In this document: positions 12,412 through 43,853 of the stretch, piece by piece
Layout: every line of letters starts with the position of its first letter
Position numbering within the stretch: the stretch's first letter is position 1
From: an uncultured archaeon
GTDB lineage: Archaea; Aenigmatarchaeota; Aenigmatarchaeia; PWEA01; JAGHBM01
DNA length: 64,000 nt
Assembly: GCA_964584335.1 (NCBI GenBank)
Contig: CAZOZN010000002.1
Span: forward strand, 8,025 to 72,024
Direction: 5' to 3'
Program-made: the position numbers and the translations under genes
The notes under the pieces: model-generated
What the model saw: the letters and a program-made list of their open reading frames with translations, nothing else
Databases searched by the model: none
What the model was told of the DNA's origin: nothing

Positions 12412-13362
12412 ATGCCACACACACATAAACCAAGAGATGGAAGTTTACAATATTGGCCAAGAAAGAAGTCAAAAAGGATATATCCCAATATTTCTAATTA
12501 TCCGAATGTTAAGGAAGCTAAACCTCTTGCTTTTGCCGGATATAAAGTCGGTATGACAAGAGTTTTCTTTAAGGACAATAAAAAAGGCTCTCCGACATAT
12601 GGACAAACTATTTCTCACCCCGTTACTGTTATTGAAACACCTTCTATCTTCGTTCTCGGTTTGCGAGCTTATTCTAATGATTCAGGTGTCATAAGCGAAT
12701 TATATGCAAAAGATATACCAAAAGAAATTAAAAAGAAAATCAACATCAAAAAAAATAAAACAAAAGAATTAGAAGATTTTGACGATTTAAGACTAATTGT
12801 ATGCACACAGCCGAACAAAACAGGAATAGGTAAAAAGAAGCCCGAAATATTTGAGATAGGAGTTGGCGGAGAAAAGGAAGATAAAAAGAAATTTGCAATG
12901 GAAAAAATCGGCAAGGAACTAAAAATAAGTGAAGTATTTAGCGAGGGTGAATATATAGACAGCTTGTCTGTTACCAAAGGAAAAGGATTTCAAGGTGTCG
13001 TTAAAAGATATGGTGTCAAGCTTAGAGGCAGAAAGGACGAAAAACATCACAGACAGATAGGAGTAATAGGAACAGAAGGAGTTGCAAGAGTTATATATAC
13101 TGTTCCCCAGCCCGGTCAGGTAGGTTTTCACAGAAGAACAGAATTCAACAAAAAAATATATAAAATAGGGGAAGATCCTAAAGAAATAAACCCAAATGGC
13201 GGTTTTCTAAATTATGGATTAGTAAAAGATAACTATATACTAATAAAAGGTTCGGTTTCCGGGCCAAAAAAGAGATTGATATTGCTAAGAGCTCCTGTTA
13301 GAGCAAATAAGAAAGGTTATCCAATTGAAATAGAAAAAATGGATAAAACAAGTCAGCAGTGA
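12412..13362 (+). CDS. rpl3: Ribosomal protein uL3 (with Lys-rich insertion).
   Basis: N- and C-terminal L3 motifs (FAGYKVGMTRVF...; GKGFQGVVKRYG); first gene of the L3-L4-L23-L2 block. Confidence 0.9.
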   Translation: MPHTHKPRDGSLQYWPRKKSKRIYPNISNYPNVKEAKPLAFAGYKVGMTRVFFKDNKKGSPTYGQTISHPVTVIETPSIFVLGLRAYSNDSGVISELYAKDIPKEIKKKINIKKNKTKELEDFDDLRLIVCTQPNKTGIGKKKPEIFEIGVGGEKEDKKKFAMEKIGKELKISEVFSEGEYIDSLSVTKGKGFQGVVKRYGVKLRGRKDEKHHRQIGVIGTEGVARVIYTVPQPGQVGFHRRTEFNKKIYKIGEDPKEINPNGGFLNYGLVKDNYILIKGSVSGPKKRLILLRAPVRANKKGYPIEIEKMDKTSQQ

Positions 13363-13616
13363 TTTTTATGATAAAAGATTTTTTAAAACCAAATTTGAAG
13401 AAAATTATAATTTTTATTATACTTTTAGTTTTAGGTTTTATTCTAAATCAATTAGACATTTCTTTTTTCATACTAGATCCAATTACAACAATAATAAAAG
13501 GAGTACCCTGTGCTGGAGGATATTGTTCTGAATTGCCTCTTGGTTTTATAACTCTAATACTTTTTTACATTTTATCATGTCTAATAGCATATTTCTTAAG
13601 AGGTAGAAAGAAATGA
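13359..13616 (+). CDS. Small two-TM membrane protein inserted between rpl3 and rpl4 (GTG start overlapping the L3 stop; stop overlapping the L4 start).
   Basis: 85 aa, two hydrophobic helices, CAGGYCSE motif. Exactly fills the L3-L4 gap with 4-nt overlaps on both sides. Confidence 0.45.
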   Translation: MIFMIKDFLKPNLKKIIIFIILLVLGFILNQLDISFFILDPITTIIKGVPCAGGYCSELPLGFITLILFYILSCLIAYFLRGRKK

Positions 13617-15792: not shown

Positions 15793-16203
15793 ATGGTTAA
15801 GTATCCTGTAAAAGCTGAAAAAGGAGAAGTAAAGGCAGCTGGTATAGGTCTCCCCATATCAACAAAAAGAAGTATTATGGTATGCAAAAAAATAAACAAG
15901 CTTGAGTTAGAAAAAGCAAAGAATTTTTTAGAGGATATGATAAGCGGGAAAAGAGAAATAGAAAGAAAGCATTTCACAAAAACTTGCAAGGAAATATTGA
16001 AAATACTTGAAAGCGGGGAAAAGAATGCAAAATACAGCGGTATGGAATATCCTCTAATAAAAACAATATGTGCTGAAAAGGGCGCTAAGAGACTCAGGAT
16101 GAAAAGAAGAAGGTCTTTCGGTTCAAGCATAAAAAACACAAACATAAAGTTAATCCTAAAAGAGGGCAAGAAAAAAACCAAAAAAGAAGGTGCTAAGAAA
16201 TGA
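15793..16203 (+). CDS. rpl22: Ribosomal protein uL22.
   Basis: AKAAGIGLPISTKRSIMVCKKINKLELEKAKNFLEDMI is L22-like; operon position. Confidence 0.85.
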   Translation: MVKYPVKAEKGEVKAAGIGLPISTKRSIMVCKKINKLELEKAKNFLEDMISGKREIERKHFTKTCKEILKILESGEKNAKYSGMEYPLIKTICAEKGAKRLRMKRRRSFGSSIKNTNIKLILKEGKKKTKKEGAKK

Positions 16204-16958
16204 GTATAAAAAACAAGTTCATATTTAACAACACAAAAAAACCGAAAATAGAAAAGTTCCTTTGCAAGGAATTCGAAAGATATGGTTACTCTCATTCCAC
16301 TATAAGAAAAACACATACAGGAATGAATATAACAATATACGCAAACAAACCCGGACTGATAATAGGAAGGGGTGGGGAAAATATTAATAAAGTATCGGAC
16401 AAGCTCAAAGAAAAATTCAATTTTGAAAACATAAAGATAGACGTTCAGGAAATAGATAAACCTTACATGAATTCAAAAATAGTTGCAGAGGAAATTAAAA
16501 ATGCACTAGAAAGGGGTGTAAACAACAGAAGAATAGGCAACATAATGCTAAGAAAGGTAATAGAAAGCGGTGCCATAGGATGTGAAATAAGATTAAGCGG
16601 CAAACTCGGTTCCGCAAAATCAAGAGTCCAAAGATTCTACAAAGGTTATCTAAAATACTCAGGAGATACTGCAAAAAACTTTGTAGACTACGCAAAAGTA
16701 AGTGCAGTTACAAAAGCAGGTTCAATAGGGATAAAGGTCAGGATAATGAAAGATTACCCGGAGGCAAAAATAAGAGAAATAAAAGAAGTGAAAAAGAAAG
16801 AAGAGAAAAAAGATTTAAAATGCCCGTATTGTGGTAAGGTTTACGAAAAAGAAAGAAGTCTGAAGATACATATAGGACAGAAACACTCAGAAGAAGATAA
16901 ACCAAAAAAAGAAGATAAAAAAGAAAAGGTAGATAAAAATGACGATTCTAAGAAGTAA
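16200..16958 (+). CDS. rps3: Ribosomal protein uS3 (KH domain) with C-terminal Lys/Glu-rich extension carrying a classical C2H2 zinc finger.
   Basis: KH motif GLIIGRGGENINKV; C-terminal CPYCGKVYEKERSLKIHIGQKH fits C-x2-C-x12-H-x4-H. Confidence 0.9.
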   Translation: MSIKNKFIFNNTKKPKIEKFLCKEFERYGYSHSTIRKTHTGMNITIYANKPGLIIGRGGENINKVSDKLKEKFNFENIKIDVQEIDKPYMNSKIVAEEIKNALERGVNNRRIGNIMLRKVIESGAIGCEIRLSGKLGSAKSRVQRFYKGYLKYSGDTAKNFVDYAKVSAVTKAGSIGIKVRIMKDYPEAKIREIKEVKKKEEKKDLKCPYCGKVYEKERSLKIHIGQKHSEEDKPKKEDKKEKVDKNDDSKK

Positions 16959-17151
16959 AGAAGTTAGGAAAATGACAGACAAAGAGATAGACAAAAAGGT
17001 AGAGGAGCTTAACCTGGAACTTTCCAAAAAGAAAGCTCAGATAATAGTGGGTGGTGCTCCTGAAAACACTGGCAGAATAAGAGAAATCAAAAAAACTATT
17101 GCCAGGATATTAACAATAAAAAAAGAAAAAAAGGTGATAAAAAATCAGTGA
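16939..17151 (+). CDS. rpl29: Ribosomal protein uL29.
   Basis: ILRSKEVRKMTDKEIDKKVEELNLELSKKKAQ is L29-like; operon position. Confidence 0.85.
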   Translation: MTILRSKEVRKMTDKEIDKKVEELNLELSKKKAQIIVGGAPENTGRIREIKKTIARILTIKKEKKVIKNQ

Positions 17152-17152
17152 A

Positions 17153-17452
17153 ATGTGTCCAAATTGCGGACTCCCGAAAGACCTTTGTATATGTGAGACA
17201 CTAGCAAAAGAGGAAAAAAAATTAAATGTCTATGTTGATAGGAGAAGATACGGAAAAGCTATGACTGTAATAGAAAACGTATCAAACGACATGAATCCAG
17301 GAGAAATATTAACAAAACTCAAAAAAAGACTTGCTTGTGGGGGCACATACAAAAACGGGAAAATAGAACTACAAGGAAATCACATAAGAAAAATGGAAAA
17401 CCTATTGACGAAACTTGGTTTTTCAAAAAAGCAACTTGAAATAAAAAATTAA
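17153..17452 (+). CDS. sui1: Translation initiation factor SUI1 (aSUI1/eIF1).
   Basis: Cys-rich N-terminus and SUI1 core RRYGKAMTVIENV...LACGGTYKNGKIELQGNH; conserved position after L29 in archaea. Confidence 0.85.
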   Translation: MCPNCGLPKDLCICETLAKEEKKLNVYVDRRRYGKAMTVIENVSNDMNPGEILTKLKKRLACGGTYKNGKIELQGNHIRKMENLLTKLGFSKKQLEIKN

Positions 17453-17718
17453 TGATGATAACAAAAAAGAACATAAAAAAACACGAGATAATCGGTCTTG
17501 AAGTAGAGGTATTAAAAAGCAAAAACAAATCACAAGAAAAAATGAAAGGTCTTGTGGTTGATGAAACAAAAAAAACCATAAAAGTAGATACAAAAAAAGA
17601 GGAAAAAACGATACCTAAACAGGATACCGTTTTCATGTTCAAGAAAAACAAAAAGGTAATCAAAGTAAACGGAAACGATATAATGTTCAGACCAGAAGAA
17701 AGAATAAGAAAATGTTAA
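17452..17718 (+). CDS. rnp1: RNase P protein component Rpp29 (Pop4-like).
   Basis: IGLEVEVLKSKNKSQEKMKGLVVDETKKTIKV...IPKQDTVFMF matches the Rpp29 Sm-like core; canonical position between SUI1 and S17. Confidence 0.6.
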   Translation: MMITKKNIKKHEIIGLEVEVLKSKNKSQEKMKGLVVDETKKTIKVDTKKEEKTIPKQDTVFMFKKNKKVIKVNGNDIMFRPEERIRKC

Positions 17719-17719
17719 G

Positions 17720-18055
17720 GTGAATAAAATGAATGAAATAGGACTAAGCGTAAATGCACCAAAAGATAAATGCAACAGTAGAAAATGCCCATTCCATGGA
17801 ACCCTGCCTGTAAGGGGAAGGGTCTTTAATGGCATTGTGATTAGTGATAAGTCTAAAGATACTGTAATCGTAGAGTGGGATTATTTCAATTTTATACCAA
17901 AATACGAAAGATATGAAAGAAAAAAGACAAGAATACTCGCGCACAATCCGTCTTGTATAAACGCGAAAAAAGGAGATTCTGTTACAATTGCAGAATGCAG
18001 ACCGATTAGCAAGAAAAAGAACTTTGTTGTAGTTGAGAAAGAGGTGAAAAAATGA
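17720..18055 (+). CDS. rps17: Ribosomal protein uS17.
   Basis: CPFHGTLPVRGRVFNGIVISDKSKDTVIVE is an S17 OB fold. Confidence 0.9.
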   Translation: MNKMNEIGLSVNAPKDKCNSRKCPFHGTLPVRGRVFNGIVISDKSKDTVIVEWDYFNFIPKYERYERKKTRILAHNPSCINAKKGDSVTIAECRPISKKKNFVVVEKEVKK

Positions 18056-18450
18056 AGGCAACGGGTTCTAGAATAACCAAGGGAATAAATAACGGTGCAA
18101 TTATAAAGTGCATAGATAACAGCGGAGCGAAATTACTTAAGGTTTTTGCTGTAAAGGGTTATAAAGGTCGTAAGAGAAGACAACCAAAGGCCGGTGTCGG
18201 AGACATCGTTTTGTGTTCAGTAAAAAAAGGTACACCAAAAATAAGACAGGAAACCCCGACTGCAGTAATAGTAAGACAAAAAAAGGAAATAAAAAGGCCG
18301 GACGGGACTGTTATAAAATTTGAAGATAATGCTGCCATATTGGTAGGTGAAAAAAAGGAGCCAAGAGGTTCTGAAATAAAGGGTCCTATAGCAAAAGAAG
18401 TCGTAAAAAGATTTCCGCCTATAGGGAAAATAGCAAGAATAGTGATTTAA
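18052..18450 (+). CDS. rpl14: Ribosomal protein uL14.
   Basis: CIDNSGAKLLKVFAV...GDIVLCSVKKG is the L14 signature. Confidence 0.9.
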   Translation: MKATGSRITKGINNGAIIKCIDNSGAKLLKVFAVKGYKGRKRRQPKAGVGDIVLCSVKKGTPKIRQETPTAVIVRQKKEIKRPDGTVIKFEDNAAILVGEKKEPRGSEIKGPIAKEVVKRFPPIGKIARIVI

Positions 18451-18975
18451 ATGAAAACAACTCAGCCAAGAAAACAAAGAAAAAGATTGTACAACATGCC
18501 AATTCATCAAAGGCATAAATTGATAAATGTTGGTCTGAGTGAAAATCTAAGAAAGAAATTCAACAGAAGAAATATGGCAATAAGAAAAGGAGATAAGGTA
18601 GAAGTAATGAGAGGGGAATTCAAGGGAACAAAAAGTATCGTAAATAAAGTTGACCTTAGAAACTTAAAAATAATATTAGATGAAGTCAAGAGAAGCAAGA
18701 CCGACGGAACCGAAGTAAGAATACCGGTTCATCCATCAAATTTAAGATTAATAGAACCAGACATGACAGACAAAAAAAGACAGAAAGTAGTAAAAAGAGT
18801 TAAAGGAGAATTCGAAGTTAAAAAACCCAAACCAAAGAAGAAAAAGGAAAAGAAAGAAGTAAAGAAAAAAGATGAAGGTATTAAATGCCCGGTTTGTGGT
18901 AAGAAGTTTGAAAACAAGAAAGATTTGAATACTCACGTAGAGAAAGATCATAAACAATTCAGAAAAGGTGAATAA
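18451..18975 (+). CDS. rpl24: Ribosomal protein uL24 (KOW) with C-terminal Lys-rich extension carrying a classical C2H2 zinc finger.
   Basis: KOW region IRKGDKVEVMRGEFKGTKSIVNKVD; C-terminal KCPVCGKKFENKKDLNTHVEKDH fits C-x2-C-x12-H-x4-H. Confidence 0.85.
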   Translation: MKTTQPRKQRKRLYNMPIHQRHKLINVGLSENLRKKFNRRNMAIRKGDKVEVMRGEFKGTKSIVNKVDLRNLKIILDEVKRSKTDGTEVRIPVHPSNLRLIEPDMTDKKRQKVVKRVKGEFEVKKPKPKKKKEKKEVKKKDEGIKCPVCGKKFENKKDLNTHVEKDHKQFRKGE

Positions 18976-19668
18976 ATGCATCAAAAAAGATTATCAGCAC
19001 CAAAAAGTTACCCAATAAAAAGAAAATTAAATAAAAGGTTCTTGGTATGTCCTAGACCGGGCCCTCATCCAAAAAACAACTGTATAACTCTTTTATCGGT
19101 TTTAAGAGACATGCTTGAGTACTGTGAAAACTCCAGAGAGGCCAGATATACAATAAAATTGGGTAAAGTAATGGTAGACGGAAAAACTAGAAAAGACCTG
19201 AAATATCCTGTAGGAATTTTCGACATAATAACATTACCCGAAATAAAGGAGAGCTACATCGTTGTATCGGGAGAAAAATATCTTAAATTATTGAAAACTG
19301 ATAAAAAATCAAAAATTTGCAGAATAGAAAACAAGACAAAGATAAAGGGAGGTAAGACTCAGCTAAATCTTCATGATGGTAAAAATTTAATAGTAGATAA
19401 AGACCGGTACAAGACTAAAGATTCTTTGGTTTTGGAATTACCAAACTTAAAAATAGAGAAACATCTAAAGAGAAAAGAAAATTCATTGTGTCTTATAATA
19501 AAAGGAAGTAACATGGGTAAGATTGGGAAAATTAAAGATATTAAAAAAACACCGGGTTCAAAACCTAACATGGCTTCCATAGAGATTAATCAGAAAACGG
19601 TTGATATACCGGAAAAATTTGTTTTTGTTATAGGAGAAAAAACCCCCGAAATAAAGATAAGTGATTAG
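18976..19668 (+). CDS. rps4e: Ribosomal protein eS4.
   Basis: HQKRLSAPKSYPIKRK...FLVCPRPGPHP is the eS4 N-terminus. Confidence 0.9.
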   Translation: MHQKRLSAPKSYPIKRKLNKRFLVCPRPGPHPKNNCITLLSVLRDMLEYCENSREARYTIKLGKVMVDGKTRKDLKYPVGIFDIITLPEIKESYIVVSGEKYLKLLKTDKKSKICRIENKTKIKGGKTQLNLHDGKNLIVDKDRYKTKDSLVLELPNLKIEKHLKRKENSLCLIIKGSNMGKIGKIKDIKKTPGSKPNMASIEINQKTVDIPEKFVFVIGEKTPEIKISD

Positions 19669-20179
19669 TATGAAAGAAAATCCAATGAGAAAAATCACAA
19701 TAGAGAAAGTCACCTTAAATATAGGCATAGGTGAATCTGGAGAAAAACTTGAAAAAGCGAAAAAATTACTTGAAAACTTCACTGGGAAAAAGGTAGTGTT
19801 AACAAAAGCAAAAAAAAGAAACACTTTCGGTTCATCAAAGGGAAAGAAAATAGGAGCAAAAGTAACTCTGAGAGATGAGAAAGCGATAGAAATACTTAAG
19901 AAAGTTTTGGAAGCAAAAGAAATGAAGCTAAAAGAAAGGTGTTTCGATAAAAACGGTAATTTCTCTTTCGGAATACACGAACATATAGACATACCGGGTG
20001 TGAAATACGACCCCAAGATAGGGATATATGGAATGGATATATGCGTTACGCTTCAGAGACCGGGTTTCAGCATAAAAAGAAAGAAAATAAACAAAAAAAT
20101 CGGAAAAACCCACAAGATAAAAAAAGAAGATGCAATGGATTTCGCTAATAAAAAACTAGGAATTGACGTGATAAAATGA
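19661..20179 (+). CDS. rpl5: Ribosomal protein uL5.
   Basis: [24 protein letters not shown] is the L5 N-terminus; operon position. Confidence 0.9.
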
Positions 20180-20328
20180 AAAATGATGATATCAAAAAAA
20201 ATAAACCAAAATCAAGGAAATGTGCAAGATGTGGGAGGCACGGAGCACTAATAAGAAAATATGGCCTTTGCTATTGCAGGCACTGCTTCAGAGAAATAGC
20301 AGAAGAAATTGGGTTTAAAAAATATTAA
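20176..20328 (+). CDS. rps14: Ribosomal protein uS14 (Zn-type, ~50 aa); below the ORF-track length cut-off.
   Basis: Manual translation: [50 protein letters not shown] with the C-x2-C...C-x2-C S14 Zn motif; ATGA overlap with the L5 stop. Confidence 0.8.
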
Positions 20329-21264: not shown

Positions 21265-21598
21265 AAAATACAGAAGGCATCCTGAACTTAAAAAACTCGG
21301 AGAAAAATGGAGAAAACCGAAGACCAGAACAAACAAAATAAGAAGAAAACTAAAAGGCAAAAAACCGATGCCTTTGATAGGTAGCGGATCACCTAAAAAA
21401 GAAAGAAATAGGCACCCTTCTGGTTTATTTGAAATAAGAGTGTCAAATCCAAAGGAACTTGATGAAGTAGACAAAAAAACAGAATGTGTTAGAATATCCG
21501 GCAGTGTTGGTAATAAAAAGAAAATTATTATAACAAAAGAAGCGAATAAAATGGGAATAAAAGTTTTGAATCCTAAATTGAGGGTGGTTAATAAATGA
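21248..21598 (+). CDS. rpl32e: Ribosomal protein eL32.
   Basis: KKYRRHPELKKLGEKWRKPKTRTNKIRRKLKGK is the eL32 N-terminus; canonical position. Confidence 0.85.
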   Translation: MKKMNKKYRRHPELKKLGEKWRKPKTRTNKIRRKLKGKKPMPLIGSGSPKKERNRHPSGLFEIRVSNPKELDEVDKKTECVRISGSVGNKKKIIITKEANKMGIKVLNPKLRVVNK

Positions 21599-21780
21599 TA
21601 AGTCTAGCTAAAAAAAGCGAGAATTGTCCTTTATGTGGCAATTTGGGTAAAAATTTTGATGTAGAAAAGGATAGTCTAAAAAATTGTCCTATATGCGGGA
21701 CAGTATTTAATGAATTTGGAATAATATTGACTCAAGAAATGGACGATGAAATGTTAAAAAACAGAATAGAAAACAACTAA
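21595..21780 (+). CDS. Small zinc-ribbon protein (CPLCG...CPICG) inserted between rpl32e and rpl19e.
   Basis: 61 aa with two CxxC pairs; ATGA overlap with the L32e stop; ends 10 nt before L19e. Confidence 0.4.
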   Translation: MISLAKKSENCPLCGNLGKNFDVEKDSLKNCPICGTVFNEFGIILTQEMDDEMLKNRIENN

Positions 21781-35040: not shown

Positions 35041-35163
35041 CCCCGGATAGCTCAGCGGTAGAGCGGTCGGCTGTAGACTCATACTAAAAGTATTAGTTGA
35101 ATAGCAATCGTTCAAAAAGCAGGAACCGACAGGTCCTGTGTTCGAATCACAGTCCGGGGACCA
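35041..35163 (+). tRNA. tRNA-Tyr(GTA) with a 47-nt intron at the canonical anticodon-loop position (37/38); encoded CCA.
   Basis: Acceptor CCCCGGA/TCCGGGG, discriminator A; D-arm GCTC-AGCGGTA-GAGC; anticodon stem GTCGG, loop CTGTAG|intron|A, 3' stem CCGAC; T-arm CTGTG-TTCGAAT-CACAG. Confidence 0.75.
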
Positions 35164-35318
35164 AAATTATAATTATAAATAACTACAAAAAAGTAAAAAA
35201 TCGACTGTTTTCTTTATGACGAAATCTGAGAGGTGCCCAATAAAGGCTCTAGATGGTAAATAAGAGTATATTTAAACTAACCGAAAGCTTTTTAAAGGTT
35301 TTCATACTAATAGTAGAC

Positions 35319-35433
<115 letters not shown>

Positions 35434-35548
35434 ATCAATAAATCATGTTCACTTGGGGTCGATAAGATTTTAATGAAAAAAATTAGCCTGTTAGAATTAC
35501 CTATTTAAAGCTTTATAACTAACATTTAGAGTTAACTATTAAAAATTT

Positions 35549-35647
35549 GCCCCGGTAGTGTAGCGGTCTAGCATACGGCCCTGTCGGGACCCTCAGTAAA
35601 GTTGCGGTAAGGCTGTGACCCGGGTTCGAATCCCGGCTGGGGCGCCA
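35549..35647 (+). tRNA. Class-I tRNA (99 nt) with a ~23-nt intron in the anticodon loop; best model is tRNA-Asp(GTC).
   Basis: Acceptor GCCCCGG/CTGGGGC (one G-U), G, CCA; D-arm GTGT-AGCGGTCTAGC-ATAC; candidate anticodon stem CGGCC, loop CTGTCG|intron 35587-35609|A, GGCTG; variable TGAC; T-arm CCGGG-TTCGAAT-CCCGG. Confidence 0.5.
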
Positions 35648-35653
35648 AAGATT

Positions 35654-35742
35654 GGGCCTATAGCTCAGCCTGGTAGAGCACCGGCCTTTTAACATTAGAG
35701 GAAAGCCGGGTGTCGAGGGTTCGAATCCCTCTGGGCCCGCCA
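35654..35742 (+). tRNA. tRNA-Lys(TTT) with a 12-nt intron at 37/38.
   Basis: Acceptor GGGCCTA/TGGGCCC, G, CCA; D-arm GCTC-AGCCTGGTA-GAGC; anticodon stem CCGGC, loop CTTTTA|ACATTAGAGGAA|A, GCCGG; variable GTGTC; T-arm GAGGG-TTCGAAT-CCCTC. Confidence 0.65.
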
Positions 35743-43694: not shown

Positions 43695-43853
43695 GGGCCC
43701 ATAGCTCAGCCTGGTAGAGCACTCGGCTCTTAACCGAGTTGTCGAGGGTTCGAATGAGCCTTTCTTCAAAAGAAAGCCTCAAGGGAAAGAACTTGGAAAA
43801 CTCTCTGAGTTTTCCCATGCTTAAATCCTAAGAAAATCCCTCTGGGCCCGCCA
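43695..43853 (+). tRNA. tRNA-Lys(CTT) with an ~82-nt intron in the T-loop (about 59/60).
   Basis: Acceptor GGGCCCA/TGGGCCC, G, CCA; D-arm GCTC-AGCCTGGTA-GAGC; anticodon stem CTCGG, loop CTCTTAA, CCGAG; variable TTGTC; T-stem GAGGG; T-loop TTCGAA(T) interrupted by 43756-43837 before CCCTC. Confidence 0.75.

Follow-up and report, generated by a model that had tools for sequence, protein, structure and literature searches.

uS3 and uL24 with C-terminal C2H2 fingers

The 64-kb stretch of DNA analysed here (the window; contig CAZOZN010000002.1 of an uncultured archaeon of the Aenigmatarchaeota) contains, according to the listing of its open reading frames (ORFs), a typical archaeal ribosomal-protein operon on the + strand. 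Two proteins of this operon, uS3 of the small and uL24 of the large ribosomal subunit, each end in a linker rich in Lys and Glu (K/E-rich) followed by one C2H2 zinc finger. This architecture, proposed by a first-pass annotation of the DNA, was confirmed by the ORF translations and a motif scan. As claimed, both fingers fit C-x2-C-x12-H-x4-H exactly, with Tyr or Phe three residues after the second Cys and Leu three residues before the first His.

The uS3 gene (16200..16958, + strand, ORF including the stop codon) encodes 252 aa. The protein is identified by NF003219 (228.1 bits against a cut-off of 147) and TIGR01008 (196.4 against 150.25), and contains the Pfam domains KH_2 (PF07650) and Ribosomal_S3_C (PF00189). 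Its canonical body, residues 1-186 (16200..16757, +), is defined by Foldseek alignment to solved archaeal and eukaryotic uS3 chains over 184-194 columns; the top matches are archaeal uS3, and none of the solved chains aligned extends into the finger. Then follow the K/E-rich linker (residues 187-207, PEAKIREIKEVKKKEEKKDLK, 16758..16820, +) and the finger itself (residues 208-229, CPYCGKVYEKERSLKIHIGQKH, 16821..16886, +), which fits the C-x2-C-x12-H-x4-H pattern. The protein ends in a K/E/D-rich tail of 23 residues that the AlphaFold2 (AF2) model and the alignment mark as disordered (residues 230-252, 16887..16955, +). In the model the linker forms a helix (187-201) and then a low-confidence stretch (197-203), and the predicted local distance difference test (pLDDT) score of the tail is <50 at 232-252. 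Counted after the PE motif, the linker has 18-30 residues, 19 in most sequences of the finger-bearing clade described below; the length of the tail ranges from 6 to 100 aa among relatives.

uL24 (18451..18975, +, 174 aa, ORF including the stop codon) matches Ribosomal_L26 (PF16906, 88.7 bits) and TIGR01080 (122.7 bits against a cut-off of 47.65). Its canonical body spans residues 1-118 (18451..18804, +), the point at which outgroup uL24 sequences stop. By Foldseek it aligns over 112-118 columns to solved archaeal uL24 with a target-normalised TM-score of ~0.9 (0.90, with an rmsd of 1.5 A, for T. kodakarensis uL24). Alignments to solved uL24 chains, archaeal as well as eukaryotic, cover the body only, and none of these chains has a finger domain. 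The extension opens with the motif G-E/K-F-E-V-K-K (here GEFEVKK, residues 119-125, 18805..18825, +), which has a conservation of 0.89 within the clade and is absent from outgroups. It continues with the K/E-rich linker (residues 126-145, 18826..18885, +; pLDDT ~55) and the C-x2-C-x12-H-x4-H finger (residues 146-167, CPVCGKKFENKKDLNTHVEKDH, 18886..18951, +), and closes with a conserved C-terminal cap, K-E/Q-F/Y... (here KQFRKGE, residues 168-174, 18952..18972, +), as seen in the alignment. In 30 sequences the linker, counted after the G-x-F-E-V-K motif, measures 17-24 aa with a conservation of 0.53; the finger is followed by 4-7 aa in every case, and H-K-[EK]-[FY] is kept there across the clade. 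The K/E-rich linker residues before the fingers read AKIREIKEVKKKEEKKDLK in uS3 and KPKPKKKKEKKEVKKKDEGIK in uL24.

The low complexity of the sequence flanking the fingers is the only property that would speak for an artefact, be it read-through of a stop codon, an assembly error or a chance array of Cys and His residues in a low-complexity tail. In a six-frame scan of the window, these two fingers are the only strict matches to C-x2-C-x12-H-x4-H; when the residues of each ORF of 60 aa or more were shuffled, the mean was 0.02 motif matches, and 0 of 2000 shuffles reached two. The exact uS3 and uL24 proteins are present on a 270,512-bp NCBI contig, and an independent Logan assembly of run SRR15425351 yields an identical uS3 as well as a uL24 of 174 aa, with the same weak or faint zf-C2H2 Pfam matches. 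Since the independent assembly carries the same proteins and nine related genomes, which differ widely in codon usage, have intact ORFs, read-through due to sequencing error is excluded. Together with the shuffles and the purifying selection described below, this led us to reject a read-through or assembly artefact, to which we assign next to no probability. The first-pass annotation had itself named related orthologues without the Cys and His residues, or error-made read-through, as findings that would speak against the fingers; the nine related genomes and the independent assembly keep both fingers.

Fold, distribution and history of the fingers

AF2 models built with family alignments predict the beta-beta-alpha fold of a C2H2 finger for both tails. 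In uS3 the strands lie at 206-207 and 214-215 and an 11-residue helix at 218-228 (pLDDT ~80); in uL24 the strands lie at 144-145 and 152-153 and an 11-residue helix at 156-166 (pLDDT 69-76). Low-confidence linkers flank both fingers. The core residues Y215 and L221 of uS3 are invariant, as is the core Phe of uL24, the core Leu of which is conserved to >=90%. The uL24 finger scores above the gathering threshold of the Pfam family zf-C2H2 (26.2 against 25.2 bits) and reaches 26.4 bits with zf-C2H2_4, and the uS3 finger lies below the zf-C2H2 threshold (20.2 bits). DUF7410, an archaeal 22-aa C2H2-like domain with a threshold of 27.5 bits, is matched below that threshold by the uS3 finger (18.3 bits) and by P0008 (17.4) and P0019 (13.5). 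In this respect, the uS3 finger resembles archaeal C2H2/DUF7410 fingers that are fused to information-processing proteins or occur on mobile elements.

Furthermore, sequence matches of the tails in the PDB are C2H2 fingers, the best being to designed or natural ones. The isolated tails gave no meaningful family when compared with NCBIfam, and Foldseek searches of the full models against the PDB matched the bodies and gave no match for the finger. Profiles of the two tails align to each other with an HHalign probability of 98% and 32% identity, which suggests that they are related as C2H2 fingers yet represent two distinct types. Altogether, each tail probably forms a single beta-beta-alpha C2H2 finger, which is presumed to bind Zn. 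With classical fingers (PF00096/PF13894) the two share the ligand spacing, the aromatic and Leu core, the predicted fold and the best PDB matches; they differ from them as single fingers that are not part of an array and have no TGEKP-type inter-finger linker, in the spacing of the His ligands (x4 instead of the usual x3), in their position at the C-terminus of archaeal ribosomal proteins and, for uS3, in the score below the Pfam gathering threshold. A kinship with C4 zinc-ribbon ribosomal proteins was rejected, as both ligands and fold differ.

A scan of GTDB species-representative genomes provided nine related loci from metagenome-assembled genomes of Aenigmatarchaeota with a GC content of 35-57%, two of them complete chromosomes (0.83 and 0.87 Mb). 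Both fingers are present in uninterrupted ORFs in 9/9 of these loci, within which no other plausible C2H2 motif was seen. Among the closest relatives the uS3 finger occurs in 24 of 25, the exception being a contig that ends two residues before the first Cys, and the uL24 finger in 32 of 33. Variants of the latter are a change of the last His to Gln (P0138), H-x3-H spacing (P0135, P0142), CP changed to CL (P0147) and, in two high-GC genomes (loci L008 and L009), Ala at the position of the core Leu. All further uS3 and uL24 homologues listed are without the finger; among them are proteins of other Aenigmatarchaeota (e.g. P0042, P0183, P0187), Woesearchaeota, Nanoarchaeota, Thermoprotei and methanogens. 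In neighbour-joining trees calculated from the canonical bodies alone, the finger-bearers form a single clade for uS3 as well as for uL24, and in the uS3 tree their sister group consists of finger-less Aenigmatarchaeota. These trees and the alignments of homologues across archaea agree with the earlier suggestion that the tails are acquired, lineage-specific extensions. As far as sequences can tell, the simplest history would be that each finger was gained once near the base of an Aenigmatarchaeota subclade and then co-inherited. The gain must be old, as body identity within the clade goes down to 48% for uS3 and 46% for uL24. Within the clade the uS3 finger has the signature ..ERSLKIHIGQKH, which, together with G[FY]KCPxCGKxFxNKxxLNxHxxKEHK of uL24, provides a clean sequence marker of the subclade.

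Conservation of the majority residue in uS3 amounts to 0.92 in the finger, 0.80 in the body, 0.64 in the linker and 0.35 in the tail. In an alignment of 22 clade sequences C208, P209, C211, Y215, E218, S220, L221, K222, I223, H224, I225, G226 and H229 are invariant. Pairwise comparison of the uS3 finger codons over ten genomes gave 484 synonymous and 135 non-synonymous differences; this excess, together with switches between AGY and TCG codons for Ser and between AGR and CGY codons for Arg, indicates that the peptide is preserved and not the nucleotide sequence. For the uL24 finger the corresponding conservation is 0.73, against 0.76 for the body, and the codon differences number 233 synonymous and 362 non-synonymous; it keeps the ligands, the Phe, the Lys/Asn pattern F-x-N-K-x-x-L-N-x-H and the trailing H-K-E-F/Y. 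The uL24 finger is thus under looser constraint than that of uS3. The comparisons support the view that the fingers are kept by selection on two different ribosomal proteins of one operon.

The deepest finger-bearing lineage, made up of the two high-GC genomes (P0025 and P0318, loci L008 and L009), gives an indication of how the uS3 finger arose. Alongside the finger, its uS3 keeps a C-terminal module of ~50 aa (..LLK.EKEGKNRKGVV.YLERR..) that is also present in the finger-less sister clade (P0028, P0030, P0042; BLASTP of the P0318 against the P0028 tail, E = 6e-9). As the deepest bearers have this module in common with finger-less sisters, the finger must have entered between the body and a tail module that was already there; the low-GC subclade that includes the window later replaced this module by low-complexity sequence. 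The gain of the uS3 finger is thus accretion at a permissive C-terminus, not the replacement of a lost part. The module itself, found in the uS3 of some Aenigmatarchaeota, follows the pattern ..D[YW]..[LM]L[KE].EK[ED]GK.RKG....[LF]L..[KR].. and has no Pfam match. At the same end of the protein, the 404-aa uS3 of Aenigmarchaeota archaeon ex4484_52 (P0073) is annotated as a fusion to a C-terminal HAD-type hydrolase (PF00702/PF13419); the annotation reflects either a further fusion at the uS3 C-terminus or two genes merged in gene calling.

As to the source of the fingers, a profile scan of the full library with the uS3 finger was dominated by animal poly-zinc-finger proteins. No free-standing protein whose finger is exactly of the uS3 or the uL24 type turned up as a donor; apart from uS3 itself, no single-finger protein scored high. 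The best match is a metagenomic archaeal TFB/TFIIB homologue of 1005 aa on a 9.4-kb contig (P0241), which combines a Zn_Ribbon_TF domain and a TFIIB (cyclin) repeat with at least 13 C2H2/DUF7410 fingers whose helices read ..ERGL.IH.G..H; for a basal transcription factor, such a finger array is an unusual architecture. The contig that encodes a 78-aa protein with two fingers (..DLKIHMGIVH) also carries integrase genes and numerous small ORFs lacking annotation, and the PDB sequence matches include the Sulfolobus virus protein B-129. An archaeal, viral or mobile-element pool of fingers is a plausible donor.

Possible roles on the ribosome

The C-terminal domain of uS3 lies on the solvent side of the head of the 30S subunit, beside the mRNA entry channel, and uL24, together with uL23 and uL29, lines the rim of the polypeptide exit tunnel. 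These known positions of the two C-termini favour tethered modules near those two sites, and the fact that linker length is tightly held while its sequence drifts suits a module that needs to reach one defined docking site. We propose, with moderate confidence, that the fingers are genuine ribosomal additions which selection maintains in one Aenigmatarchaeota clade, and that they act as permanent tethered surface modules at defined sites. Each finger is joined to the C-terminus of its protein by a K/E-rich tether whose length is held at about 20 residues, and would dock at a defined site that the tether can reach, the uS3 finger near the mRNA-entry side of the small-subunit head and the uL24 finger near the rim of the tunnel exit. 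The partner, as far as we infer docking on the ribosome at all, would most probably be an rRNA helix or junction, and possibly a neighbouring protein too. The clade would thereby have an extra folded element at each of two busy functional sites of its ribosome.

Several observations weigh against this proposal. AF2 places neither finger against its body with confidence. The invariant helix face of the uS3 finger (E, R, S, K, I) is chemically mixed, with charged and hydrophobic residues, and could equally be a protein-binding surface. Membership in the dsRNA-binding JAZ or zf-met families was rejected, as the thresholds of zf-C2H2_jaz (PF12171, 22.6 bits) and zf-met (PF12874, 21.2 bits) were not reached by uL24 (16.5 and 14.2 bits) or by the uS3 relatives P0025 and P0019 (16.5-16.9 bits). 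The change of Leu to Ala in two high-GC genomes and the one change of the last His to Gln indicate that the uL24 finger tolerates more change. Finally, since many archaeal uL24 and uS3 proteins have unstructured K-rich tails, part of the role may be merely electrostatic.

Alternatively, the fingers could be modules for recruitment or sensing rather than structural staples, which we regard as possible if not very likely. At the entry channel, the uS3 finger would then touch either incoming mRNA or a factor; the uL24 finger would contact a partner at the tunnel exit (such as SRP, SecYE, a chaperone or an enzyme that processes nascent chains) or the membrane surface. It is established in ribosome biology that both attachment points are hot spots of factor docking, and the eukaryotic C2H2 proteins Rei1/Reh1/ZNF622 and ZNF598 act at comparable sites. 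The tethers are flexible and poorly predicted, the hydrophobic residues exposed on the invariant uS3 helix surface suit protein contacts, and the M. jannaschii ribosome-SecYEbeta complex (4V4N) is among the Foldseek matches of the uL24 body. However, so tightly held a linker length suits a fixed docking site on the ribosome more than fly-casting, and a lone finger usually binds weakly. A further possibility is an extraribosomal or regulatory role, against which it speaks that a single finger gives little sequence specificity. In this scenario, for example, the fingers would bind the operon mRNA for autoregulation, free uS3 or uL24 would bind DNA, or the fingers would be a store of zinc released when Zn is limiting. 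C2H2 fingers classically bind DNA, ribosomal proteins often autoregulate their operons, and the best match of the uS3-finger profile is the multi-finger TFB mentioned above; but two different ribosomal proteins gained and kept different finger types together, and no repeated operator-like element was seen, though none was looked for. We consider such a role highly improbable.

The first-pass annotation had suggested that the fingers are RNA-binding extensions and may compensate for rRNA or protein elements lost in a reduced ribosome; for a DPANN ribosome this would mean lost rRNA helices or ribosomal proteins. Protein extensions do replace lost RNA in other reduced ribosomes, and the archaeon belongs to DPANN and has a small genome (related chromosomes measure 0.83-0.87 Mb). 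The operon, however, looks complete from uL3 to uS5, the bodies of uS3 and uL24 are full length and show no deletions relative to outgroups, and finger-less Aenigmatarchaeota of similar lifestyle exist. Moreover, in the deepest lineage the uS3 finger stands in front of an existing C-terminal module, which argues for accretion. The only rRNA in the window is 5S. Altogether, compensation seems unlikely to us, although not to the degree of a regulatory function.

The closest solved precedent for a finger on an archaeal ribosome is a free-standing one. Both tails repeatedly match a 64-65-aa "C2H2-type domain-containing protein", chain Bk, modelled in the 70S ribosomes of P. furiosus (PDB 9QF4-6) and P. 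abyssi (9SRA-E, 9T7H); these matches are weak (E 0.0012-0.027) and rank below many eukaryotic fingers. Since uL24 is chain BU in 9QF4, Bk belongs to the chain set of the large subunit. Like the extensions described here, it consists of one archaeal C2H2 finger with a tail on either side, and it is a physical component of a ribosome of known structure; unlike them, it is a separate polypeptide of Thermococcales and not a fusion, and the similarity is at the generic C2H2 level. The text and supplements of the associated paper (the HibA paper) contain no mention of the chain, and a query made of half a finger plus tail and aimed at it gave no match. If Bk sits near the C-terminus of uL24, the uL24 fusion would be a Rosetta-stone case. 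More generally, both fusions could be "Rosetta-stone" versions of trans-acting, ribosome-binding C2H2 proteins, an old decoration of the archaeal ribosome surface that is free-standing in Thermococcales and tethered here; a C4 mini-protein encoded between eL32 and eL19 (see below) may be a third such module. We regard this wider reading as doubtful. If true, it would imply that the mRNA entry channel and the tunnel exit hold genuine functional docking sites marked by the fingers, and would be a hint of archaeal forerunners of the C2H2 factors that associate with eukaryotic ribosomes.

Small Zn-stabilised building blocks are common to ribosomes in the form of uS14, eL37, eL40, eL42, eL43, eS27 and aS21, but in these proteins Cys4 ribbons or treble clefs form the protein core, whereas here Cys2His2 fingers of beta-beta-alpha fold are appended and tethered. 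Archaeal aS21 has been described as a small zinc-finger ribosomal protein (PMC12605026, PMC7531240). Lineage-specific tails are likewise frequent: many archaeal uS3 and uL24 proteins have C-terminal extensions of 20-100 aa rich in Lys, Glu, Ala and Pro, and in eukaryotic uL24 the C-terminus forms a helix (138-142 aligned columns in Foldseek), so that these C-termini are evidently permissive for accretion. Those tails, however, are of low complexity or a simple helix, and none that we retrieved has a folded metal-binding domain. Lineage-specific extensions and Zn-binding modules of ribosomal proteins are thus already familiar, and what differs here is that the module is of the classical C2H2 type and occurs, in an archaeon, on one protein of each subunit; in a full-text literature search of incomplete coverage, no account of such fingers on archaeal uS3 or uL24 came up.

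Few proteins are as conserved as those of the ribosome, and that two of them gained a folded domain, which strong purifying selection has since maintained, points to a clade-specific function of the ribosome. The two sites concerned serve translation initiation and mRNA unwinding at the entry channel and nascent-chain targeting at the exit rim, and from the fingers one could learn how initiation, unwinding and targeting are tuned in a host-dependent DPANN archaeon. They also extend the short list of classical C2H2 fingers in Archaea, here attached to core translation machinery.

The operon and other features of the window

Most gene names of the operon were read from ORF translations, and six ORFs of the window were checked for domains; on this footing the operon looks complete from uL3 to uS5. 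Its order is uL3, a small ORF, uL4, uL23, uL2, uS19, uL22, uS3, uL29, aIF1/SUI1, RNase P Rpp29, uS17, uL14, uL24, eS4, uL5, uS14, uS8, uL6, eL32, a second small ORF, eL19, uL18 and uS5. The uS14 of this operon (20176-20328), read from its translation, is of the C4 type. The uL29 ORF (16939-17151) starts 20 nt within the end of the sequence for the uS3 tail, in another frame (overlap 16939-16958), and the TAA stop codon of uL24 abuts the ATG of eS4 at 18976 (18973-18978), a tight coupling of genes. The 3' ends of the sequences encoding the extensions hence also hold the initiation regions of the downstream genes.

The small ORF between uL3 and uL4 (13359-13616, +), inserted in the ribosomal-protein operon, encodes 85 strongly hydrophobic aa, probably a small membrane protein, and is also called as an 82-aa gene in the independent assembly. 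It has no family match and no tblastn match in the nine related loci; it was rejected as a further addition of the clade, not being conserved in relatives, and is either genome-specific or spurious. The 61-aa ORF between eL32 and eL19 (21595-21780, +) contains two CxxC pairs (CPLCG...CPICGTVFNEFGIILTQ) and is conserved in 8/9 finger-bearing relatives with all four Cys and the motif CGTV[FY]NEFGIIL; there is no match in the remaining relative (L003), whose contig probably stops before that position. The ORF was not detected in two outgroup loci (L010, L011) and has no Pfam or NCBIfam family. To judge from this pattern of conservation, its product may be another zinc module specific to the clade, the third, or else a ribosomal protein that has escaped recognition.

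Outside the operon, a 5S rRNA gene (35319-35434) lies within a cluster of tRNA matches (35041-35742). Two Rfam tRNA matches, at 35041-35160 and 43695-43762, were missed by ARAGORN. The unusual lengths of matches in the cluster (120, 96 and 86 nt) suggest tRNAs that contain introns.

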